From positions 120,001-152,000 of the forward strand of contig JAUYHT010000002.1 in NCBI GenBank assembly GCA_030688545.1: 32,000 nt of DNA, given 5' to 3'. This document shows positions 1,663-23,956 of the stretch, piece by piece. This DNA is from Candidatus Iainarchaeum sp. (GTDB lineage Archaea > Iainarchaeota > Iainarchaeia > Iainarchaeales > VGJJ01). The notes beneath the pieces are model-generated. The model saw only the letters and a list, made by a program, of their open reading frames with translations. It ran no database searches and was not told the DNA's origin. Position numbers and translations under genes: made by a program. The first letter of the stretch is position 1. Each line of letters opens with the position of its first letter.

Positions 1663-3384
1663 TCACAAGTCATTCCGCACATGATGCAATTCCCGCTCGC
1701 GGTAGATTTGCTCTTTCAGCTTGACCATGTTGGGGATCGTCATGGGGCGGCCTTTACGGAGGAAGAAATTCACATTCTCCATGAATGATTTGCCCCCGAT
1801 GATTTCGGTGAGGACCACGTAATCCGCTCCCAGCTTATAGAGCTTCATGGCCTCCTCGTAATAATTGGCTTTCACGAAAATCTTGAGGCGGGGAAAATAG
1901 TGTTTCACGTAATCCGTGATGTACATGGCTTCCGGGATGTCGGGAATAACTATAATGAGTAATTTGGCCTTATCCGCATGCACATTCTCCAATATCTCGG
2001 TGGAATGGGCATTCCCATAGATCGCGGGCACCTTCTTGGCTCTAAGGTAGGCCACTTCCTGGGGATCGTGGTCGATGACCAACACGTGATTTTTTCGGTG
2101 GAGGCCGAACGCCAGGTATTTCCCTACTCGTCCTCCCCCGAGGATAATAATATGGTCATCCAGCCTTTTCTCATCTACATGCTGCATGGCCTCCACTCGG
2201 CGAGCGAATATAGGGAAATGGGAAAACACCTTCACGGGAAGAACTTTTTTCAGCCAACCCTGGAAACGGGGACCGAAATCCATGTAGTAGGGCGTCACGG
2301 CCATGGAGAAGGCCGCGAGGAAGAGGAGCATCTCAAAGAGATCCCGAGGCACGGCCCCTGAAATAAACCCTTGAGTGAGGAGGATGAGGGAGAACTCTGA
2401 CATCTGACCCATGCCAAAGGCGACCTTCCCGGCTGTTTGAGAACCATATCCCGCGAGCTGGGTGAGGATATAGAGAATCAGGGGTTTGAGGACGAAGACG
2501 AAGAGCACGAGAATGCCAACCAAACCAAGGGTAATCGTGGAAGGGATACCGGTTAATTGAGAACCCAGAGATACAAAGAAAATCATCACGAAGAAATCCC
2601 GTAATCCCCGGATGGAGGAGATAGCCTCCAGGTTGTAGGGGAGCTGGGCAATGGCCAATCCCGCGAGGAACGCCCCGATGGCAAGGGAAATATTCAGCAG
2701 GTAAGCGATGCCAATGAACCCGAAGCACGTGGCGAGGGCTGTGAGATAGAGCAACTCAGAGGAATTGGCCGCGATGCGATAGAGGCGGGGAAAAATAGCA
2801 TGCGAGAGCACCCCCACGAGGGCGATGAGGAAAACTCCTTTTAGGAAAAGGAATTGGATTAAATCGAATGTAATGGCCTGGTTGGCAGCGAGAATGGGCA
2901 ACGCCACGATGACCGCGACATCCTGAACCAGGAGAAAACCTAACATGAGTTGACCATGCAGGGATTGCAACACCTTCCTGTTTTGGAGCACCCGAATCAC
3001 CACCATGGTGGAGGAGAGTGCCAGGGCTAATCCCACGTATAGAGTGCCGGTGATTCCCAGTTGGGGAAAGATGAAAAAAGCAAGAAGGATAGTGAGGGAA
3101 ACCTGGGCGATGCCCCCTAGCAGAATAGTTGAACCATTCCGGAGAAATTTCAAGAAATCCGTTTCCGCTCCAATAGTGAAAAGAAGGAAGATAATTCCCA
3201 ACTCGGAAAGCAAGGCAATCTCTTCCGGGTCCGAGAGCACCCCTAATCCGATGGGACCAATGATGACCCCGGCTAGAAGATAACCCATGAGGGCTGGCTG
3301 CTTGAATATCTTGGCAATATAGAGGGAAAAGGCGGCCGCGATGACCATGAAGCCCATGTTGAGCAGCAGGGAGAAATCGGCCAT
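1663..3384 (-). CDS. Monovalent cation:proton antiporter-2 (CPA2/Kef-type) with C-terminal RCK/TrkA-N domain
   Basis: 573 aa. Multi-helix hydrophobic N-terminal domain typical of the Na+/H+ exchanger fold (GPIGLGVL, LLFTIGAETD), followed by a Rossmann motif IIILGGGRVGKYLA...VIDHD. Confidence 0.9.
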   Translation of the reverse strand: MADFSLLLNMGFMVIAAAFSLYIAKIFKQPALMGYLLAGVIIGPIGLGVLSDPEEIALLSELGIIFLLFTIGAETDFLKFLRNGSTILLGGIAQVSLTILLAFFIFPQLGITGTLYVGLALALSSTMVVIRVLQNRKVLQSLHGQLMLGFLLVQDVAVIVALPILAANQAITFDLIQFLFLKGVFLIALVGVLSHAIFPRLYRIAANSSELLYLTALATCFGFIGIAYLLNISLAIGAFLAGLAIAQLPYNLEAISSIRGLRDFFVMIFFVSLGSQLTGIPSTITLGLVGILVLFVFVLKPLILYILTQLAGYGSQTAGKVAFGMGQMSEFSLILLTQGFISGAVPRDLFEMLLFLAAFSMAVTPYYMDFGPRFQGWLKKVLPVKVFSHFPIFARRVEAMQHVDEKRLDDHIIILGGGRVGKYLAFGLHRKNHVLVIDHDPQEVAYLRAKKVPAIYGNAHSTEILENVHADKAKLLIIVIPDIPEAMYITDYVKHYFPRLKIFVKANYYEEAMKLYKLGADYVVLTEIIGGKSFMENVNFFLRKGRPMTIPNMVKLKEQIYRERELHHVRNDL

Positions 3385-3414
3385 GCCTAACCATCGAGAA
3401 GGAGCTTAAAAAGC

Positions 3415-3681
3415 TCACGAATCGCCCGGAAAAACCATCTGCTCGATATCCGCTTTCCGATGGACATTAAGGGAAACGTGCAACCCGTACCCCGTGGGCT
3501 TGGTCAGGATAAGACCTTCTTTTATCAGCCCGTCGAGGGCCATACGGATATCCTTCCACAAGTCTTTGGGAAATCCCCGCGGGATATTATCATACGCCGT
3601 GTGTTTCCCTCCCCACCAGGCGTGGCGCACCATTTTGATCAGAATCCTTTTCCGAATCTCAAGGGGTGAAAGTTTCATCAT
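3415..3681 (-). CDS. Small hypothetical protein, possibly winged-helix fold
   Basis: Start moved to ATGATG at 3681 (MMKLSPLEIRKRILIKMVRHAWWGGKHT...LIKEGLILTKPTGYGLHVSLN). The upstream part of the 119-aa track ORF would overlap the divergent neighbour. Function not recognised. Confidence 0.55.
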   Translation of the reverse strand: MMKLSPLEIRKRILIKMVRHAWWGGKHTAYDNIPRGFPKDLWKDIRMALDGLIKEGLILTKPTGYGLHVSLNVHRKADIEQMVFPGDS

Positions 3682-3731
3682 TTGAAACGTTAAGAGATTA
3701 TTATTTAAACTTAAGGAGAGTAAAGTTCCGT

Positions 3732-4100
3732 ATGCAAACGGGTAAATCAACACCAGGCGCATCCAACGACCCATCCCTTTTCGTGGAATTCTTTGGCGAC
3801 TACCCCTTCATCCGCGTCCTCGATTTCCTGCTGGAAAACGATGCGTTCGACTACTCCAAGAAGGACATCTGCCGCTATTCGAATGTTTCCTGGAACACCT
3901 TGGATACGTTCTGGAACCAATTGGAAAGGGAGCAGATCGTTGCTCCCACGCGGAAGGTGGGCAAAGCCATGCTGTACAAATTGAATTCCCGCAACCCCAT
4001 TGTGGAACAGCTCCGCGCACTCGATCAGCGGCTCATGCGGGCCAGCTTGCAAAAAGTGGACCCTAAAAAAATAAAGCCTATTGCTGCGGATTCGGATTAA
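3732..4100 (+). CDS. Winged helix-turn-helix transcriptional regulator (small archaeal wHTH family)
   Basis: FFGDYPFIRVLDFLLENDAFDYSKKDICRYSNVSWNTLDTFWNQLEREQIVAPTRKVGKAMLYKLN matches the pattern of archaeal ArsR/TrmB-like wHTH proteins. ATG 3732 (MQTGKS) avoids overlap with the divergent gene. The 3' end overlaps the cysS 3' end by 23 nt. Confidence 0.7.
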   Translation: MQTGKSTPGASNDPSLFVEFFGDYPFIRVLDFLLENDAFDYSKKDICRYSNVSWNTLDTFWNQLEREQIVAPTRKVGKAMLYKLNSRNPIVEQLRALDQRLMRASLQKVDPKKIKPIAADSD

Positions 4101-5571: not shown

Positions 5572-6105
5572 ATGGATTCGATACGTGGGAATATGGCCGG
5601 CTCCCATGGAAAACCCGGAAATCGGGGGGGAAAACCCAATCGATCCGAAAAATTTTCCCCGCGCGAGCAACTGCCATTGCCTTTCGCGAATAGGAATCTA
5701 TTGCGCAGTCAACTGCACTTCCGGGCCGATCCCAACGTGCTAGGGTTAAAACATCGGGGTATTGTGGTGGAATTGGGGAGAAAACCCGTTGCCCGCATCC
5801 TCTATTCTATTGAAAGGAAAAAGAATGGTGAACGATTCTGGAAAATAAATGTAGATGTGATGGACTATCGTCGCCATGGGATCGCCACCAAACTGGTGCG
5901 ACAATTAGTAAACATGGCCCGTATCCACAATCACCTTCTTCCAGAAAAGAAAGTGGCATTTCTGCAGGCCGCTATCGAGGCCGATAATGCCGCTTCGATC
6001 TCATTTTTCACTCAAATGGGTTTTATCCAAACCGGAAATATTCGATCGGGGGATTATAGCGAACCCCCTATTCTACTTTTCGAATACCGAATTCCAGAGA
6101 AATGA
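5572..6105 (+). CDS. GNAT-family N-acetyltransferase
   Basis: Acetyl-CoA binding motif A-like VMDYRRHGIATKLVRQLVNMA, followed by a GNAT-like C-terminal segment (AAIEADNAASISFFTQMGF). ATG 5572 is chosen because track start 5413 lies inside cysS on the other strand. Confidence 0.7.
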   Translation: MDSIRGNMAGSHGKPGNRGGKPNRSEKFSPREQLPLPFANRNLLRSQLHFRADPNVLGLKHRGIVVELGRKPVARILYSIERKKNGERFWKINVDVMDYRRHGIATKLVRQLVNMARIHNHLLPEKKVAFLQAAIEADNAASISFFTQMGFIQTGNIRSGDYSEPPILLFEYRIPEK

Positions 6106-6111
6106 CTTCCT

Positions 6112-6218
6112 CCCCACCCTAAAGGGTGGGGTATCCGACAAATAGAAAACGTCACTTGCTCGCGTGTTCGCTCGCCAAACAATGGGCGACGAATGTCGCC
6201 CTGAAGGGCGAGGTATCC
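6112..6218. repeat. Two copies of a roughly 20-nt hairpin-containing motif (CCCTAAAGGGTGGGGTATCC 6117-6136; CCCTGAAGGGCGAGGTATCC 6199-6218) plus hairpin GGGCGAC-gaat-GTCGCCC (6184-6201)
   Basis: Read directly. CCCCACCC-taaa-GGGTGGGG (6112-6131) is a perfect 8-bp stem. CGCCC-tgaa-GGGCG spans 6197-6210. Both stems are followed by (G)TATCC. The region lies between two convergent 3' ends. Confidence 0.6.
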
Positions 6219-6263: not shown

Positions 6264-6896
6264 TCACAATCCGCCGTTCAGGATGAAGACAATCACGCTT
6301 TGCACCCCAATGAGCACGATCATGGCGAGCACGGATTTGAACACCGTCGTATTCAAATATTTCTGAACCGAGAGGAAGAGGACATATATCATATACAAGA
6401 ATAGAATCCCGGCCAATAGGAGGAAGGGGATGACTAACCATGGGATTTCAGGGGACGAAAGGGCGTCGAATATGGCCGCATTGAACTCCTGTTCCCCGAT
6501 GAGGCCCTGGCTGAATTGCTGCGTAGCTGATAGAAGACCGGGCACCGCAATGAGGGGAAGGATGATGCCCAGGATGAGAAAGAGGAAGAAGCCATAGTAG
6601 TTGAGCTGGGCGAACATCGTCAAGGCGCGGAGCACCCCATCTTTGGTAACAGGAACCTTCCAGAGCAACCCCAGGAGCACCAAGAGCAGACCGCCGATTA
6701 TCCATTTCAATAAATCTCCAATTAATGACATCAAAATGAGATCGGGGAACAAGGATCCCGTGAAGAGGAGCGAAGCCAGTATTCCAGCGAGGGTGCCCAG
6801 GAGGATGAATCCTATGGAGCGAAGGAGGGAAGGGTGATCATAGGCGAATGAAACGGCCTCCTTGGGACGAAGGAAAAGGTTGGTGTAGTAGGACAT
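6264..6896 (-). CDS. Yip1-domain-like integral membrane protein
   Basis: 210 aa. The N-terminus MSYYTNLFLRPKEAVSFAYDHPSL, followed by about five hydrophobic helices, is the usual Yip1/DUF1282-type layout. Confidence 0.7.
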   Translation of the reverse strand: MSYYTNLFLRPKEAVSFAYDHPSLLRSIGFILLGTLAGILASLLFTGSLFPDLILMSLIGDLLKWIIGGLLLVLLGLLWKVPVTKDGVLRALTMFAQLNYYGFFLFLILGIILPLIAVPGLLSATQQFSQGLIGEQEFNAAIFDALSSPEIPWLVIPFLLLAGILFLYMIYVLFLSVQKYLNTTVFKSVLAMIVLIGVQSVIVFILNGGL

Positions 6897-8974: not shown

Positions 8975-9520
8975 ATGAGTATAGTGGGACAAAAAGCCCC
9001 CGAATTCAAGAGCGAGGCCTATGTGGATGGGCATTTCAAGCCCATCAGCCTATCCGACTACAAGGGAAAATGGGTGGTGCTCTTTTTCTATCCCGAGGAC
9101 TTCACATTCGTTTGTCCCACCGAAATACGGGGTTTCGCCAAAAAAGAAGAGGAATTCAAGAAATTGAACGCCGTGGTGATCGGGGCGAGCACCGATTCCA
9201 AGCACTCCCATAAAGCCTGGGTGGAAAGGGACATGCCAGAAGTCAAATTTCCCCTCCTCGCGGACACCCGACACTCCATCTCACGGGATTTTCGAGTATT
9301 GAAAGAGGACCAGGGAATCGCCTACCGGGGATTGTTTCTCATCGACCCGGAGGGGTATGTCCGGTATGAAGTGGTGTCTGATCTGGACGTAGGGAGAAGC
9401 GTGAAAGAAACATTACGCGTGCTCCAAGCCTTCCAAACCGGGGGTTTGTGTGAAATAGATTGGGAACCCGGGAAGGAAACACTGGACAAAAAAGCCAAGG
9501 CAACTGTCCCCGGGAAGTGA
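8975..9520 (+). CDS. Peroxiredoxin (typical 2-Cys Prx/AhpC family)
   Basis: Peroxidatic motif DFTFVCPTE, with a resolving Cys in GGLCEIDW. A strong SD (GAGGTGAT) lies just upstream of ATG 8975. Confidence 0.93.
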   Translation: MSIVGQKAPEFKSEAYVDGHFKPISLSDYKGKWVVLFFYPEDFTFVCPTEIRGFAKKEEEFKKLNAVVIGASTDSKHSHKAWVERDMPEVKFPLLADTRHSISRDFRVLKEDQGIAYRGLFLIDPEGYVRYEVVSDLDVGRSVKETLRVLQAFQTGGLCEIDWEPGKETLDKKAKATVPGK

Positions 9521-9582
9521 GGGGGTTTTTCCCCTTATTCCTTCCTCATTCTTTTTTATTCTCGAAAAAATTGTCTAGCACC

Positions 9583-10434
9583 ATGCGCTGGTACAAGCCC
9601 CTCCTTTTTCCTTTCGCTTCCCGGTTCATCGCGGGGGAAACCCTGCATGAGGCATTGGTATATGGTCAGCGTCGCCGAAAAGAAGGAATTACTCCTTTAT
9701 TCGATGTCCTGGGGGAAGCCGCCACCCGGAAATCGGAGATCGTTCGGGCGACCAACGATTATATGAATGTCATCGAAGGCATGCACGACGCCAAAATTCA
9801 GGGGGGATTGTCTCTCAAACTAACCAGCTTCGGATTGGATGAGGATAAGGAATTATGCTTCCGCGCCGTCCATCGGATTGTGCGCCATGCGCATGCCCAC
9901 CGCATCCTCGTGTGGGTTGATATGGAGTCGTCCGCCCACACGAAGGCCACGCTCTCCATCTACCGCCGCCTCCTCGAGCATCATGACAATGTGGGGATAT
10001 GCATCCAGGCGTATCTCAAGCGTTCCAAGCGGGATATCCTCTCCCTCCTCCCCGACAACCCTAAAATCAGGCTGGTGAAAGGAGCGTATACTGAGTCTGC
10101 CAGCGTGGCCTATACCCGCCACCCGGAGGTGGTGAATCATTTCAAGGCACTCATCACCTTATGCATCGAGAAAAAGGTCTGGTTGGCCGTGGCCACGCAT
10201 GATATGACCATCATCAACCACACCCTCTCCCTCGCGGGGAAGACTAAAAACCATTTGGAATTCCAGATGCTCAAAGGCATCAAGGACCGCGAGAAAAAAG
10301 TCCTTTCCGAGGCCGGATACAGGGTGGCGGAATACATCCCTTTCGGAAAAGAATGGGATCGCTATTTTTTCCGTCGCCTCCGGGAGGGATGGTACAGTTT
10401 ATTGTGGATGCTCGTGAGCAGCCTGACTGGTTGA
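9583..10434 (+). CDS. Proline dehydrogenase family protein
   Basis: SRFIAGETLHEAL, DVLGE, SLKLTSFGL, VWVDMESS, RLVKGAY and LKGI follow the Pro_dh TIM-barrel family pattern. ATG 9583 is chosen because track start 9460 lies inside the peroxiredoxin gene. Confidence 0.8.
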   Translation: MRWYKPLLFPFASRFIAGETLHEALVYGQRRRKEGITPLFDVLGEAATRKSEIVRATNDYMNVIEGMHDAKIQGGLSLKLTSFGLDEDKELCFRAVHRIVRHAHAHRILVWVDMESSAHTKATLSIYRRLLEHHDNVGICIQAYLKRSKRDILSLLPDNPKIRLVKGAYTESASVAYTRHPEVVNHFKALITLCIEKKVWLAVATHDMTIINHTLSLAGKTKNHLEFQMLKGIKDREKKVLSEAGYRVAEYIPFGKEWDRYFFRRLREGWYSLLWMLVSSLTG

Positions 10435-10507
10435 CACAAAAAAAAGAAACCCATCACGGGTTCATTGCTTGGAATTCAGTGAGAGAATCCCTCAAGCAAC
10501 CGGGGGT

Positions 10508-10838
10508 GGTCCAGGAGAATAATACAATTATTCTCGTGTCCTTGGAGTGCACACCCGAAAGCGTGCGGCCGATCGAACACCCGAAAACATACACACGTCA
10601 ATGAGCCGTTTCGGCCGCCAAGAGGGTGTAACCCTCCCTCGTCCATCGGGACGCACGATCGAAAGCGCTTCGGAACAAATTCAATCGTTTTTGGCCGCCG
10701 GGGGATTGAAGAATCCCCCTCGTCCCTCGGAGCGCACGTTCGGTTTTTTCGCTGTTTCTTCAGGGGTATCAGAGATACCCCGGGTTCGGGGCGGCCGATC
10801 GAAAGCGGCCATCGAAATCGTGCCGAGGAAGCGTGCGG
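10508..10838. repeat. Array of four imperfect tandem units (starts near 10508, 10613, 10693 and 10762), each a perfect variable hairpin plus a conserved block; candidate structured ncRNA(s)
   Basis: Hairpins at 10515-10535, 10622-10636, 10700-10719 and 10763-10781. Conserved blocks are GGCCGCC, CCTCGTCCNTCGGNNCGCACGNTCG and GATCGAAAG. T5 and T6 runs occur at 10688-10692 and 10744-10749. See finding. Confidence 0.6.
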
Positions 10839-11930
10839 TTAGAGATAATCTATCCCCATTCCATCCCGCGCGGGCCCGGCGTAGCGGGGAGTGACGCCGC
10901 GGACATGGGTGGGCTGCTTGCTCGCCGAAATGAAAGGGCTCCTCACCCCCGTGAACACCGTGATAACCTCAATCTTGTTCTCGAAGGAAGGATTGATCCG
11001 CGCGCCCCAGATAACCGTGGCGTTGTTGTCCAACTGCTCGGTGAGCATCTCCCCTATTTTGTTAGCTTCTCCCAGGGTGAGCTCATACCCCCCCGTAATA
11101 TGGATGAGTGCGCCTTTGGCACCGGCGATGTCCACATCCAGGAGTGTGTTATTCAGGGTGTCGGCGACCGCCTCTTCCACACGGTTGACGGATTTGCTCT
11201 CCCCCACCGCGATCATGGACAACCCGTGTCCCGTCATGATGCTCCGCACATCCGCAAAATCCAGATTGATCAAGGATGGTTGAGTAATGGTTTCGGTGAT
11301 CCCGGACACGACCCGGGCGATAAGCTCATCCGCCACCCGGAAGGCGTCCTGGATGGGCAGATTGGGCACCAACTCGGCGAGGCGATTGTTATCGATAACG
11401 ATTACGGTATCGCAAATTCCTGCGAGACGCTGAATCCCTTCTTCCGCCTTAATGGTGCGCGCCCGCTCGAGGGCAAACGGATATGTAACCATGGCAATAA
11501 CGATGGCCCCCTGCTCCTTGGCAATCTGGGCGATGACAGGGGCGCTCCCCGTTCCCGTGCCCCCACCCATGCCCGCGGAGATAAACAGCATGTCCACCCC
11601 CCGCATGACGGATTCCAGATCGGCTTTGCTTACCTCGGCCGCCTTCTCCCCCACTTCAGGATAGCCGCCGGCCCCTAAACCCCGGGTGACGGATTTTCCT
11701 ATGAGAATCTTGGTTATGTTGTCGTTGATAATGGATAAATGTTGCTTATCCGTATTCACGGCCACCAATTGGGCGCCCGCGATATTCATGCTCGCCAGGC
11801 GGTTGACCGCATTACACCCCGCGCCCCCGGCGCCAATAACCATAATTTTGGGTACGGAAAATTCCTCGATCCGGCCCCCATCCGACTCTTGCTGCTTCTG
11901 CTTGACGGCTTCATCAATCATTGAACGCAT
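10839..11930 (-). CDS. ftsZ: Cell division GTPase FtsZ
   Basis: IMVIGAGGAGCNAVNRL and the tubulin signature GMGGGTGTGSAPVIA, with NTD...L and VIDN motifs. Confidence 0.95.
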   Translation of the reverse strand: MRSMIDEAVKQKQQESDGGRIEEFSVPKIMVIGAGGAGCNAVNRLASMNIAGAQLVAVNTDKQHLSIINDNITKILIGKSVTRGLGAGGYPEVGEKAAEVSKADLESVMRGVDMLFISAGMGGGTGTGSAPVIAQIAKEQGAIVIAMVTYPFALERARTIKAEEGIQRLAGICDTVIVIDNNRLAELVPNLPIQDAFRVADELIARVVSGITETITQPSLINLDFADVRSIMTGHGLSMIAVGESKSVNRVEEAVADTLNNTLLDVDIAGAKGALIHITGGYELTLGEANKIGEMLTEQLDNNATVIWGARINPSFENKIEVITVFTGVRSPFISASKQPTHVRGVTPRYAGPARDGMGIDYL

Positions 11931-19688: not shown

Positions 19689-19761
19689 TTTTTGATCAAC
19701 CTTTTTTCCCAAAAAAAAGGACGGAAGAGGTTTTTGATCAACCTTTTTCCCAAAAAGGTTG
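19689..19761. repeat. Tandem 41-nt duplication TTTTTGATCAACCTTTTT(T)CCCAAAAA..GG; the second copy forms the perfect palindrome CAACCTTTTT-ccc-AAAAAGGTTG (19739-19761)
   Basis: Read directly. The first copy (about 19689-19720) is imperfect. The second abuts the duplicated tRNA 5' fragment. Confidence 0.6.
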
Positions 19762-19780
19762 CGGGGTTGGCAGAGTGGTC
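19761..19780 (+). repeat. Exact 20-nt copy of the tRNA-Ser 5' end (GCGGGGTTGGCAGAGTGGTC), with no matching 3' half
   Basis: Identical to 19863-19882. It is followed by hairpins GGCCAGT-ttcg-ACTGGCC (19781-19798) and GGGCACCC-(12 nt)-GGGTGCCC (19810-19837). Confidence 0.7.
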
Positions 19781-19862
19781 GGCCAGTTTCGACTGGCCAC
19801 TGCGAAAAAGGGCACCCATTTTAACAAACGGGTGCCCAGTCCATCCAAAGAAAATAAAGGAA

Positions 19863-19946
19863 GCGGGGTTGGCAGAGTGGTCTATAGCGGCAGCCTGCTA
19901 AGCTGTTCCGGGAAACCGGGCGAGGGTTCGAATCCCTCACCCCGCG
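19863..19946 (+). tRNA. tRNA-Ser (anticodon GCU), class II with long variable arm
   Basis: Acceptor GCGGGGT/ACCCCGC. Anticodon stem GCAGC/GCTGT with loop CTGCTAA. Variable arm CCGG-gaaa-CCGG. T-arm GAGGG-TTCGAAT-CCCTC. Discriminator G. No encoded CCA. One A-A mismatch in the D stem. Confidence 0.9.
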
Positions 19947-23240: not shown

Positions 23241-23405
23241 CTACTGCATGTTTGCTTTCTGCTCCATATAGCAATCGCGGCAGAACACCGGTCTTCCCTG
23301 CCGAGGCTGGAAAGGCACTTGCGTCTCTTTTCCGCATTTGCTACAGGTGGCATCAAACATCTGGCGGGGACCTCGATCGAAGCCACCGCGTTCTTGGAAC
23401 GCCAT
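23241..23405 (-). CDS. Unannotated 54-aa CxxC...CxxC zinc-ribbon protein (MAFQERGGFDRGPRQMFDATCSKCGKETQVPFQPRQGRPVFCRDCYMEQKANMQ)
   Basis: Hand-translated, below the track cutoff. AAGGAG lies about 10 nt upstream of ATG 23405. C-x2-C-G-x5-VPF-x-P-x4-PV-x-C-x2-C is a widespread small Zn-ribbon module. Confidence 0.7.
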   Translation of the reverse strand: MAFQERGGFDRGPRQMFDATCSKCGKETQVPFQPRQGRPVFCRDCYMEQKANMQ

Positions 23406-23575: not shown

Positions 23576-23791
23576 ATGAAACCCGCCCTTTTCCTATTGG
23601 GAGTCCTGGCCCTCATTCTGCTACTTCCATCAACGTCGGCGAGTGACATCCAATACCCCATTGTTGGGGAATGTGCCGAAGACCAATATCCCATTGTGGG
23701 AGAATGCCCGGATGAAACACCACCCAAATTGGGACCCTCGTATTACCTCCAGCCCGAGTTTTATCTCCCATCAAAATTGAGAGAAACATGA
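23576..23791 (+). CDS. Small secreted protein with a tandem QYPIVGEC repeat
   Basis: Sec-type signal peptide MKPALFLLGVLALILLLPSTSA|SD, then DIQYPIVGECAE / DQYPIVGECPD (nt about 23645-23710). TATA-like CTTAAATAG lies about 25-30 nt upstream. Confidence 0.5.
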   Translation: MKPALFLLGVLALILLLPSTSASDIQYPIVGECAEDQYPIVGECPDETPPKLGPSYYLQPEFYLPSKLRET

Positions 23792-23865: not shown

Positions 23866-23956
23866 CCAACCTTTTAGGAAAAGGTTGGCGAAAAGGCGTC
23901 TGGGGTACTGCAGTGGCAGTACCCCTAAGAGCGGGATCGAGGAACAAGACCTCGAT
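23866..23956. repeat. Three perfect hairpins in the tRNA-Leu 3' trailer: CCAACCTTTT-agg-AAAAGGTTGG (23866-23888), GGGGTACTGC-agtg-GCAGTACCCC (23902-23925), ATCGAGG-aacaaga-CCTCGAT (23936-23956)
   Basis: Read directly. The first is near-identical to the palindrome at 19739-19761. Confidence 0.6.

Follow-up and report, generated by a model that had tools for sequence, protein, structure and literature searches.

With genomes of about 1 Mb, DPANN archaea carry very little non-coding DNA, and a long gap between two of their genes raises the question of what it holds. The case considered here is a 404-base interval (positions 10435-10838) between the convergent genes for proline dehydrogenase (Pro_dh, plus strand) and ftsZ (minus strand), in a 32,000-nt stretch of a Candidatus Iainarchaeum sp. 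contig that is called the window. An earlier note on this DNA had described the interval as an array of four units, A to D, each starting with a variable hairpin that is followed by a conserved block, and had proposed that short plus-strand RNAs are made from it. The reading favoured here, with middling confidence, is that the gap holds tandem copies of a structured RNA module that is lineage-specific and prone to copying. They would be transcribed on the minus strand, as the 3' flank of ftsZ, and the module would act in the formation or protection of 3' ends.

The gap downstream of ftsZ and its hairpin array

The flanking genes end where the earlier note had placed their stops, and its other coordinates and strings (four hairpins at 10515-10535, 10622-10636, 10700-10719 and 10763-10781, the blocks at 10637-10667 and 10720-10743, GGCCGCC at 10613 and 10693, the complement at 10790, the T5 and T6 runs) proved exact. 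That the gap is the largest non-coding stretch of the window, as had been claimed, is plausible; the remaining apparent gaps are occupied by PheRS-alpha, a tRNA and small ORFs. GC content in the gap is 54%, equal to that of coding DNA. Its longest frame (10523-10891, plus strand, 123 codons) has no homologue at E <= 1 among 5.8 billion proteins. A pseudogene or hidden gene was rejected after tblastn of the genes inserted here in relatives (L001, L007/L010) returned nothing from the gap, which appears, as far as can be told, to be non-coding.

The array is situated in the 3' flank of ftsZ in sense orientation, and all its units point one way. Read on the minus strand, each unit is composed of a first hairpin (hp1) of 5-7 bp with the loop (N)UUUCGA(U), a tail NNNCCGAGAAC and a GC-rich second hairpin (hp2). 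Along the plus-strand coordinates, the gap and its neighbours read as follows.

9583-10434, plus strand: proline dehydrogenase gene (Pfam Pro_dh), stop codon 10432-10434, convergent with ftsZ
10437-10463, minus strand: terminator-type hairpin GAACCC-guga-UGGGUUUC, then U8, from a terminator scan
10515-10535, minus strand: hp2 of unit A, a perfect 9-bp hairpin, AT-rich
10538-10569, minus strand: core of unit A, hp1 GCACGCU-UUCG-GGUGUGC (7 pairs including three G-U) and tail ACUCCAAGGAC
10570-10608, minus strand: fragments of further copies, GUUUUCGGGUGU and UCGAUCGGCC, between units B and A
10620-10638, minus strand: hp2 of unit B, GAGGGU-uac-ACCCUC, 6 perfect pairs in a stem that wobble pairs can extend
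10642-10673, minus strand: core of unit B, weak hp1 GCG-CUUUCGAU-CGU (3 pairs) and tail GUCCCGAUGGA, partly degenerate
10688-10692, plus strand: T5 run, which might stop Pro_dh read-through; outside the family consensus
10700-10749, minus strand: unit C, degenerate, with a perfect hp2 (10700-10719); tail UCCGA and 3' arm GUGCGC retained
10744-10749, plus strand: T6 run, likewise a conceivable stop for Pro_dh read-through, at the site of the lost hp1 loop of unit C
10763-10781, minus strand: hp2 of unit D, a perfect 8-bp hairpin GGGGUAUC-ucu-GAUACCCC, followed by no U-tract
10782-10813, minus strand: core of unit D, hp1 GGCCG-CUUUCGAU-CGGCC and tail GCCCCGAACCC; the best preserved and the nearest to the ftsZ stop
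10814-10838, minus strand: a further, incomplete copy of the hp1 loop region, GCACGAUUUCGAU, flanked by unit D and the ftsZ stop
10839-11930, minus strand: ftsZ (Pfam Tubulin and FtsZ_C domains), stop codon 10839-10841

Three perfect stems of at least 8 bp are found in the gap against a mean of 0.044 expected, a number reached in none of 2000 dinucleotide shuffles, and four of at least 6 bp against 0.6 expected (P = 0.002, dinucleotide shuffles); the whole 32-kb window contains only about ten perfect stems of at least 8 bp. The relatedness of the blocks, as previously claimed, is borne out for the pairs B-C, B-D and A-D, whose local alignments each score above all 300 shuffles (for B-C, 34 vs a shuffle maximum of 23), but it is marginal for A-C (p = 0.05), and A-B and C-D alone are not significant. 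Identity between blocks is only 68-86% and the units are spaced 104, 81 and 59 nt from start to start. Short motifs also cluster here, with three of the five window copies of GATCGAA and 3 of 14 copies of CGGCCG lying inside the gap. Folding energy alone is uninformative, because single units fold no better than shuffles (z from +0.2 to -1.7) and the scores of the whole gap are weak (z = -2.7 on the plus strand, -3.2 on the minus strand).

Preservation declines across the array. Unit D alone is intact; A, B and C are in decay. The intact unit begins 26 nt past the ftsZ stop codon, behind the partial copy, which is part of a 13-nt tandem duplication (Tandem Repeats Finder: 10791-10826, period 13, 2.6 copies). 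In unit C the hp1 loop and 5' arm have been replaced by an A6 run, seen as T6 on the plus strand. All four units possess hp2, but the four internal hairpins have no adjacent run of at least five U on either strand; on the minus strand only the hairpin at 10447-10463 does, with its T8. The array thus has a U-tract only beyond its last unit, at +69 nt. The hairpin at 10437-10463 is the probable end of the ftsZ transcript, since its U-tract is the sole one of at least five on the ftsZ strand in the gap. On the plus strand, the first T-run after Pro_dh is met only at 10688.

Loci centred on ftsZ were compared from 80 GTDB genomes and 80 metagenome contigs. Several related contigs originate from groundwater of the Hainich wells. 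Among these, the sole near-identical sequence is L081, from the same population, which encodes an ftsZ protein identical to that of the window, has a 283-aa Pro_dh gene call that maps to 9583-10434 and carries an identical gap. In relatives, a hairpin and a T-run lie directly 3' of ftsZ, and the ftsZ-Pro_dh site contains differing small inserted genes (L001, and L007/L010). The element is absent at the ftsZ site of the closest orthologues (L001, L015, L016). Covariation between orthologous gaps is impossible to obtain, because the homologous gap in relatives is 50-160 bp long and unalignable.

Copies at gene ends in related genomes

The array had been taken as specific to its locus, and the earlier note had listed decayed fragments of a known, many-copied mobile element among the findings that would speak against its proposal. 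The gap is a cluster of a dispersed multi-copy family, and to this extent the objection applies; the family is not, however, a known mobile element. In related Iainarchaeota genomes 21 further copies were detected, and 25 copies from at least eight genomes could be aligned, all of them extragenic and hairpin-forming. The hairpin-plus-block architecture was recovered by a 22-nt block scan also in L046 and L015, by descriptor and covariance-model searches in L002, L006, L008 (three copies), L013, L017, L035, L053, L080 and L093, and in loci sampled independently of ftsZ (five copies in L282, two in L283). The distribution is patchy, with no copies in L285, L286 and L288, and 363 kb of more distant loci gave no match.

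The copies follow a rule of position. They are located directly 3' of the stops of both ftsZ paralogues, a peroxiredoxin gene and a 186-aa gene, and directly 3' of SRP RNA (Rfam RF01857), tRNA-Asn, tRNA-Ser, tRNA-Leu and one other tRNA. Most begin no more than about 2 nt from the mature RNA 3' end or the stop codon (at least 12 independent sites), and all those with an identifiable neighbour read in the sense of the upstream gene; five or six are orphans or lie upstream of genes (L008 8696, L013, L080, L282 6114, L282 2556, L283 2858). For most copies in relatives, hp2 has the form of a hairpin and U-tract terminator, with a T5+ run no more than 11 nt from hp2 in 8 of the 14 tabulated copies from other genomes and about 50-70 nt away in four more. 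In the complete Iainarchaeum genome CP064981.1, the 40 kb sampled contain about eight copies, or roughly one per 5 kb. Each of the three stable RNA genes in the sample (tRNA-Ser, tRNA-Leu, SRP RNA) has a copy at its 3' end, and both ftsZ paralogues are followed by the element as well. A near-identical 30-mer, GTCCA(A/G)TTTCGATTGGACCAACCGAG(A/C)AC, follows SRP RNA (L046, L053), tRNA-Ser (L282) and the peroxiredoxin gene (L008), and its first 27 nt are present after tRNA-Asn in L035. Copying between loci has thus occurred, because this 30-mer is common to non-orthologous genes while the stems of other copies differ. A second module, UUGAU-GAACCUUUU..AAAAGGUUC, also recurs.

Two members of the family, or near it, lie elsewhere in the window.

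19778-19837, plus strand: fifth copy, intact (core 19778-19809), hp1 GGCCAGU-UUCG-ACUGGCC, tail ACUGCGAAAAA, hp2 GGGCACCC...GGGUGCCC
23866-23953, minus strand: variant three-hairpin trailer directly after tRNA-Leu, AUCGAGG..CCUCGAU, then CCCGCUCUUA

The fifth copy directly follows a 20-nt duplicate (19761-19780) of the 5' end of tRNA-Ser, the gene for which is at 19863. The trailer, which continues with GGGGUACUGC..GCAGUACCCC and then CCAACCUUUU..AAAAGGUUGG, has the architecture of the family with a different hp1 loop, and its hp2 arms GGUACUGC/GCAGUACC exactly match the ones in the ftsZ-paralogue copy of L046, the same copy that shares the 5' arm GCACGC with unit A. The element is not a general terminator, as most genes of the window end in a plain T-run without the motif.

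These placements reverse the orientation in which the array had been read. Copies follow the sense of the upstream gene, which here is the minus (ftsZ) strand and not the plus strand. The block that seemed conserved is the reverse complement of a small hairpin with its tail, the supposed CGAAAG tetraloop is the loop UUUCGA read backwards, and the variable hairpin from which each unit was thought to start is the downstream, terminator-type hp2. The family lends no support to brief plus-strand RNAs that stop at the T5 and T6 runs; in relatives that strand leads directly into a reverse-complemented stop codon or RNA gene. It is position alone that points to transcription and to the strand on which it would proceed.

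The part specific to the family is only about 30 nt long and consists of hp1 and the tail, which obeys the rule NNNC(C/G)GAGAA(C); the linker between the two hairpins is conserved as well. In the 25-sequence alignment, compensatory changes are seen at five of the five hp1 pairs and 98% of cells are paired. RNAalifold recovers hp1 unaided, and the alignment, read by eye on the sense strand, shows about eight G-U pairs and one A-C mismatch in this stem. The searches favoured stems that pair, and this partly inflates the hp1 signal. The check that had been suggested, for conservation and covariation in relatives, comes out positive, and the idea that folds are kept while sequence changes in the repeated units is supported. 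Tail bases CGAGA are predicted to pair with the loop bases UUUCG in a compact H-type pseudoknot, a helix that is 91% paired, compared with at most 56% when the same structure is slid by 1-3 columns. Covariation points to this pseudoknot at one pair only, 12-28 (UA 21, CG 2, GC 1, UG 1, none unpaired), with three compensatory cases.

Because MAFFT did not bring the variable hp2 into register, covariance models were limited to the 32-nt core, and a script tabulated hp2 separately. Model R3 was built from other genomes only, with no window sequence, and its top four hits in the 32-kb window are unit D (31.0 bits, E = 1.9e-5), the copy at 19778 (28.9 bits, E = 6e-5), unit A (18.8 bits, E = 0.016) and, marginally, unit B (13.1 bits, E = 0.36). 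Scores with model R1 are 37.4 bits for unit D, 31.1 for unit A and 27.9 for unit B. Units D and A and the copy at 19778 thus carry the core as defined, with E <= 0.016 in R3, although in unit A the second pseudoknot pair is broken; unit C does not, and is matched by neither R1 nor R3.

Comparison with known elements

As far as sequence comparison can tell, the family is new: it is undescribed and without a match in Rfam. Rfam 15 identifies only two tRNAs in the whole window, a search of the gap on both strands, which the earlier note had called for, gives no match even at E <= 10, and the canonical copies of L053 and L046 return sub-threshold noise (best DUF3800-I, 20.7 bits vs a threshold of 44.2). 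Blastn against plasmids and phages found nothing, a pattern scan of IMG/VR produced 120 chance matches, none with the full stem or hp2, and a literature search did not link Iainarchaeota to terminators or to such a motif. Several known kinds of element were considered and rejected. A CRISPR array, which has near-identical direct repeats of 23-47 nt, is at odds with block identities of 68-86%, irregular spacing, 'spacers' that are perfect hairpins and the lack of cas genes among 24 ORFs (Pfam). A MITE should have terminal inverted repeats and a target-site duplication, and neither such repeats nor flanking duplications were seen around the units; the sole flanking repeat is the 20-nt tRNA-Ser duplicate (19761/19863). 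ARAGORN and RF00005 find only tRNA-Ser at 19863 and tRNA-Leu at 23954, leaving no tRNA or tRNA-like gene in the gap. An archaeal replication origin, which has inverted ORB repeats about an AT-rich unwinding element beside orc1/cdc6, was discarded given 54% GC, co-oriented units and no Orc1/Cdc6 among the window ORFs scanned. C/D-box sRNAs, H/ACA sRNAs and type III toxin-antitoxin repeats were rejected on anatomy.

Close parallels are found among bacterial-type interspersed repeats and terminators. REP/BIME, BOX, ERIC and Correia-type repeats are short, non-coding, hairpin-forming, multi-copy, lineage-specific and patchy; they are extragenic, often at gene 3' ends or between convergent genes, occur in tandem clusters, are assembled from modules and are transcribed together with their neighbours. 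The element shares these traits, co-transcription probably included, and, like REP/BIME, is a dispersed, multi-copy, extragenic imperfect palindrome. However, its host is a DPANN archaeon, and it has no sequence relation to any of these repeats. It also differs from REP/BIME in orientation, which follows the upstream gene and is uniformly sense, and in abutting the RNA 3' end or stop codon to about 2 nt. In place of an imperfect palindrome headed by GTAG, the conserved core is about 30 nt that putatively form a pseudoknot. The window ORFs scanned include no transposase, and no RAYT-like enzyme was identified. With its T5-T10 run, hp2 looks like an intrinsic terminator, and a hairpin with a U-tract is the standard gene end in the clade even where the core is absent, a pattern that 10437-10463 fits. 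Unlike such terminators, the element has hp1 and the tail upstream of the terminator hairpin, with a conserved loop and tail that terminators do not need, and internal array units have no U-tract beside the hairpin on either strand.

The predicted core also resembles the preQ1-I riboswitch aptamer, the pseudoknotted acceptor arm of tRNA-like structures in plant viruses and exoribonuclease-resistant 'coremin'-type pseudoknots (PMC10520033), in all of which about 30 nt fold so that a hairpin loop pairs with a 3' tail. The viral tRNA-like and coremin pseudoknots are located at RNA 3' ends, as the element is, but the likeness is architectural only, with no similarity in sequence or to Rfam covariance models. 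Some RNAs have tRNA-like processing signals beside them, such as mascRNA after MALAT1 and the tRNA-like element next to Haloferax 5S rRNA. The element is likewise found at the exact boundary of a mature RNA, a placement which by analogy suggests that an endonuclease could set that end. In contrast to these signals, it is not seen by ARAGORN or the Rfam tRNA model, and its hp1 loop UUUCGAU is not a canonical T-loop.

Possible origin and function

In its canonical form, the core starts at most about 2 nt from a stop codon or from the 3' end of a mature tRNA or SRP RNA and is followed by the GC-rich, terminator-type hp2 and a U-tract. Such an order points to a role of the module in the formation or protection of RNA 3' ends. 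Archaeal termination is described, in PMC8716108, as using U-tracts together with aCPSF1. The knot and stem would lie just upstream of the U-tract termination signal, where they would probably be bound by a factor or block an exonuclease. Local duplication in this genome may have given rise to the four units, and the stretch of about 400 nt is most likely the 3' UTR of ftsZ, ending at the hairpin and U8 at 10437-10463. A bolder version, which we consider doubtful, is that the knot of about 30 nt is a dedicated DPANN signal for the 3' ends of tRNAs, SRP RNA and selected mRNAs, including those of both ftsZ paralogues. It might then be recognised by a processing or termination factor, mimic a tRNA acceptor arm or block an exonuclease, and thereby define or protect 3' ends; in that case the extra copies behind ftsZ would serve to tune a cell-division gene's expression.

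Among the other explanations, a selfish repeat of the REP, BOX or MITE kind deserves the most serious attention, although we consider it unlikely. It would be copied by a trans-acting enzyme that recognises hairpins in ssDNA or RNA and be tolerated in 3' flanks with no benefit to the host, the array being a pile-up of insertions or duplications. The near-identical 30-mer after non-orthologous genes, the patchy presence among close relatives and the high density in CP064981.1 are what it leads one to expect, as are tandem and partial copies and copies that adjoin tRNA gene fragments (window 19761-19780, L283 2841-2861), and the module UUGAU-GAACCUUUU..AAAAGGUUC points to a modular, BOX-like build. 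A repeat of this kind is harder to reconcile with a family-specific part of only about 30 nt, the absence of visible terminal inverted repeats or target duplications, and a uniform sense orientation that abuts gene ends within about 2 nt at 12 or more independent sites; moreover, the 24 window ORFs scanned include no transposase or integrase, and phage, plasmid and IMG/VR searches gave no match beyond chance. Selfish copying is compatible with the favoured reading, that of a copy-prone 3'-end module. An improbable alternative is a family of trans-acting sRNAs of about 60-70 nt, released from 3' UTRs and trailers or transcribed independently, each comprising hp1, hp2 with its U-tail and, between the two, a single-stranded seed CCGAGAAC, the array units being siblings. 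The architecture does recall bacterial sRNAs derived from 3' UTRs, the inter-hairpin linker is conserved, and the sequence before orphan copies is A-rich or TATA-like (in L080, TTTAAA at about -30 nt; similar at L008 8696 and L013). However, in 91% of cells the 'seed' pairs with the loop of the element itself, no complementary target was identified, internal array units have no U-tails and three of the four units are degenerate.

A cis-regulatory switch, in which a pseudoknot aptamer and the terminator formed by hp2 and its U-tract control read-through into what lies downstream, as in a riboswitch or attenuator, is very improbable. The pseudoknot is of aptamer size with a terminator hairpin directly after it, and three copies (L015, L282 6114, L282 2556) are upstream of co-directional genes; yet many copies face a convergent gene and have nothing downstream to regulate (window, L046 ftsZ-paralogue, L282 tRNA-Ser), no alternative, mutually exclusive pairing was found and no Rfam riboswitch matches at E <= 10. 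We give hardly any credence to the model of the earlier note, short plus-strand RNAs with a variable hairpin and conserved block that end at T5 or T6. The two runs do follow units B and C, and the region as a whole also folds slightly better than shuffles on that strand (z = -2.7), but in relatives the plus orientation meets a reverse-complemented stop or RNA gene, and the long T/A tract precedes the units instead of following them. On that strand the G-U pairs of hp1 and the pseudoknot turn into A-C mismatches, covariance models find no plus-strand copy in the gap, and the only TATA-like promoter is inside hairpin A. Least credible of all is neutral debris, be it chance palindromes, a decayed gene or duplicated remains of the ftsZ terminator region. 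In its favour are the degenerate state of units A, B and C and the instability of the site in relatives, which have differing inserted genes there. Against it, none of 2000 shuffles equalled the hairpin excess, six or more other genomes conserve the core, with covariation and also at loci that are unrelated, a six-frame translation does not resemble the inserted genes of relatives, and the long ORF is without a homologue. The family evidence largely excludes this reading.

To our knowledge, almost nothing is known about the RNA biology of DPANN archaea, and how archaeal transcripts are ended, processed or stabilised is poorly understood. The element is supported by covariation and absent from Rfam. 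If it is functional, it would offer a testable handle on how these archaea end, process or stabilise their transcripts, and a dedicated signal of this sort would be a novel type of element for 3'-end formation in archaea. A selfish element would be an unusual repeat family that thrives in a streamlined genome and aims precisely at gene ends. Either way, modelling the family avoids mistaking such stretches for genes, CRISPR remnants or assembly noise.

The ftsZ-Pro_dh gap and the same site in relatives

The window comes from the chromosome of an uncultivated DPANN archaeon of the Iainarchaeota, whose FtsZ finds its best matches in Candidatus Iainarchaeum MAGs, and the gap is the same in L081, a 3.9-kb contig (GCA_034375545.1) with 99.95% identity to the window. 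The GC content of the gap (54%) is similar to that of coding DNA, and a search for homologues of its sole long frame found none. All strings and coordinates that the earlier note gave for the gap were exact on re-check, and its perfect hairpins stood out clearly (three stems of at least 8 bp vs 0.044 in dinucleotide shuffles, with 0 of 2000 reaching three). The relatedness it had claimed among the four tandem units A to D exceeded all shuffles for B-C, B-D and A-D and was marginal for A-C. Rfam gave zero matches on the gap at E <= 10, in line with its statement that it recognised no known RNA family here. On the ftsZ strand, the gap has just one hairpin with T-run, at 10437-10463 (GAACCCGUGAUGGGUUUC, then U8) and thus about 390 nt past the ftsZ stop, and the first T-run for Pro_dh on the plus strand comes only at 10688.

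Gap and ftsZ-strand signal
10435-10838: gap between convergent genes, Pro_dh (plus strand) and ftsZ (minus strand)
10438-10445, minus (ftsZ) strand: U8 at the end of the 10437-10463 signal

The 324-aa Pro_dh ORF (TTG start; 9460-9582 stretch) overlaps the end of the AhpC gene (8975-9520), and this form is probably an over-extension, because the identical contig is publicly annotated with a 283-aa product starting at 9583.

For comparison, 160 ftsZ loci were fetched. Among relatives whose FtsZ is 81-92% identical, the ftsZ-Pro_dh space takes one of two forms: 50-160 bp with a GC-rich hairpin and long T-run directly past the ftsZ stop, or an unrelated small gene, such as the 159-aa ORF of L001 (5093-5572) or the 186-aa ORF of L007 and L010 (5119-5679). 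Since these small genes differ between close relatives, the site is a recurrent insertion or turnover spot. The first form shows that a hairpin with a T-run is the normal gene end in the clade. The orthologous alignment envisaged in the earlier note came to nothing, the spaces of relatives being without nucleotide similarity to the window gap.

A family of 3'-flank elements in other genomes

All loci were scanned with a weight matrix of the 22-nt block in the earlier note, and a perfect hairpin was found beside the block in two other genomes: directly past the stop of a second ftsZ paralogue in L046 (taa-GCACGCUUUCGAGCGUGC-GGACCGAGAAC-AGGUACUGCguuGCAGUACCU-GAUAUUUUUUU) and directly past a short acidic ORF in L015. 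Read in gene sense, the parts described in the earlier note have to be recast: its "conserved block" is a small hairpin (hp1) with loop (N)UUUCGA(U) plus a tail ending CCGAGAAC, and its "variable hairpin" is a terminator-type hairpin (hp2), then a U-tract. Further copies were obtained by a descriptor search and two covariance models of the hp1-plus-tail core (R1 and R2), directly past SRP RNA (L046, L053; Rfam RF01857) and past tRNA-Asn (L035), another tRNA (L093), peroxiredoxin (L008), an ftsZ paralogue (L017) and the ftsZ orthologue (L002, L006, L008). The hairpin and T-run are common to these last, filled ftsZ 3' flanks and to empty ones (L013 to L016, L001); what the filled flanks add is a core of about 30 nt, between stop codon and resident terminator hairpin. 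This hp1-plus-tail core is the family-specific part of the element.

Because these loci were all ftsZ-centred, loci around PolX homologues were fetched as an independent sample. L282 (21.7 kb of the complete genome CP064981.1) holds five good copies: starting at the discriminator base of tRNA-Ser, directly past tRNA-Leu, overlapping the TAG stop of a 186-aa gene, past NikR and its terminator, and as an orphan diverging from the tRNA-Leu 5' end. L283 holds two, one after a 14-nt fragment of a tRNA-Leu 3' end, and zero were found in L285, L286, L288 or more distant loci (363 kb). Within the roughly 1.1 Mb of related sequence searched, much of it ftsZ-centred, the family is thus restricted to the clade and patchily distributed, with high local density; a density of about 8 copies in 40 kb of CP064981.1 is an extrapolation from three loci. 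At no fewer than 12 independent sites, pairing in hp1 begins at -1 to +2 nt relative to the stop codon or mature RNA end. Tandem or partial multimers also occur past SRP RNA in L053, and in L008.

A sister variant (hp1 CGCCA-UUAUCCAUC/UUGACAUC-UGGCG, tail GGUCG) occupies the same positions past ftsZ in L009, L011 and L012 and past tRNA-Asn in L031 and L034, so that the loop of the 3'-flank hairpin differs from one sublineage to another. In L283, a gene for a Bro-N domain protein (3200-4033), a type typical of viruses and mobile elements, adjoins a tRNA-Leu flanked by family copies and a tRNA-Leu 3' fragment, which hints at past integration events there.

Fold of the core and copies in the window

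Structure was assessed on an ungapped alignment of 25 sequences. Covariation in relatives, which the earlier note had proposed examining, was found in hp1, with compensatory changes at 5/5 pairs and 98% of cells paired, statistics biased upward by searches that rewarded stems; RNAalifold recovered hp1 unaided. The tail CGAGA can pair with the loop UUUCG in a putative H-type pseudoknot, whose helix is 91% paired, though part of no search model, and sliding the structure by 1-3 columns leaves at most 56% of cells paired. Pseudoknot pair 12-28 is UA in 21 sequences, CG in 2 (L002, L283), GC in 1 (L093), UG in 1 and unpaired in 0; because covariation is seen at one pseudoknot pair only, the support is suggestive, short of proof. 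Read by eye on the gene-sense strand, the alignment shows some eight G-U pairs and a single A-C mismatch in hp1, and the putative pseudoknot uses U-G pairs, which favours folding of that strand.

A third covariance model (R3), built from other-genome copies only, was run on both strands of the whole window with filters off. Its four best matches were units D, A and B and a fifth copy outside the gap.

Family copies in the window (E-values rough, calibration having been shortened)
10782-10813, minus strand: unit D (R3, 31.0 bits, E = 1.9e-5)
19778-19809, plus strand: fifth copy (R3, 28.9 bits)
10538-10569, minus strand: unit A (R3, 18.8 bits, E = 0.016)
10642-10671, minus strand: unit B (R3, 13.1 bits, E = 0.36)
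10791-10826: partial copy, 13-nt tandem duplication
10570-10608: partial copies, fragments

Unit C gave no R3 match in this search; hp2, the UCCGA tail and the 3' arm survive in it, with an A6 run, the T6 of the earlier note on the plus strand, in place of the hp1 loop. The gap array is one intact unit beside ftsZ and three decaying units. No U-tract directly follows its internal hp2 stems, and on the ftsZ strand the first run of T5 or more is 69 nt past unit A.

The opening 20 nt of tRNA-Ser(GCT) occur twice in identical form (19761-19780 and 19863-19882), the extra copy preceding the intact gene by 102 nt, in what looks like a local rearrangement or att-like remnant. An intact element (19778-19837) directly follows this truncated copy, unlike in CP064981.1, where the element follows a complete tRNA-Ser. 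A second module, UUGAU(C/G)AACCUUUU-loop-AAAAGGUU(G/C), recurs in the window as two tandem copies upstream of the tRNA-Ser fragment and one in the tRNA-Leu trailer; in relatives it is positioned after hp2. This recurrence suggests a modular, BOX-like repeat system.

Sites of the second module
19692-19761, plus strand: window
23866-23888, minus strand: window
L035; L282, 6170-6208; L285, about 6585-6610: related loci

Past tRNA-Leu(CAA), three consecutive hairpins (23866-23953, minus strand) have 7, 10 and 10 perfect pairs, and the middle one has exactly the same arms (GGUACUGC/GCAGUACC) as hp2 of the L046 ftsZ-paralogue copy. The long gap near this tRNA holds two small, unannotated-looking ORFs (23241-23405, minus; 23576-23791, plus); one encodes a zinc-ribbon protein of 54 aa (CxxC...CxxC), and the 71-aa product of the other combines a signal peptide with a YPIVGEC motif that is repeated. 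Past the ORF ending at 6105 lie two perfect hairpins (6109-6201, plus strand), CCCCACCC-uaaa-GGGUGGGG and GGGCGAC-gaau-GUCGCCC; the first, with UAUCCGA next and a weak family-model score (10-13 bits), is possibly a diverged relative.

Alternative readings and proposed working

Rfam family membership (no match found), tRNA identity and an origin of the gap as a gene remnant were ruled out, as were a CRISPR array (irregular spacing, repeats 68-86% identical, cas genes absent from the 24 window ORFs scanned) and a replication origin (AT-rich element absent, and orc1/cdc6 absent from the same ORFs). A literature search did not find a description of the element. Its copy dynamics are like those of bacterial REP/BOX-type intergenic repeats and its architecture like small 3'-terminal pseudoknots; it differs from both in exact gene-end abutment, uniform sense orientation and host lineage.

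That a selfish REP/BOX-like repeat is the whole story seems unlikely, if worth serious thought. In four genomes, a nearly identical 30-mer (27-30 nt identical) stands past genes that are not orthologous, while the stems of other copies differ, so copies have spread between loci, and patchy distribution, tandem pile-ups and adjacency to tRNA fragments are typical of such repeats; the same spread may alternatively reflect the population dynamics of a functional module. A trans-acting sRNA is improbable, its supposed seed pairing with the element's own loop, and a riboswitch or attenuator, which fails at copies facing a convergent downstream gene, is very improbable. Still less credit is given to the plus-strand array of the earlier note, contradicted by the orientation in every informative relative, and the least to neutral debris, given conservation and covariation elsewhere.

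The fold is conserved and covaries on the gene-sense strand, and it follows a strict placement rule at 3' ends, in most cases with a hairpin and U-tract downstream of it. Archaeal termination uses a U-tract signal (PMC8716108). The element would form the end of the upstream transcript and might act in 3'-end formation, processing or protection, with the knot as a possible protein-binding site or nuclease block working with the U-tract signal. This 3'-end reading as a whole, from gene-sense fold to long ftsZ 3' UTR, is held to be evenly balanced between right and wrong, and most of the doubt concerns function. In the window, the simplest arrangement would be an ftsZ mRNA with a 3' UTR of about 400 nt that carries four duplicated units and ends at U8; the convergent ftsZ and Pro_dh transcripts probably overlap, and the T5/T6 runs on the plus strand may stop Pro_dh read-through.
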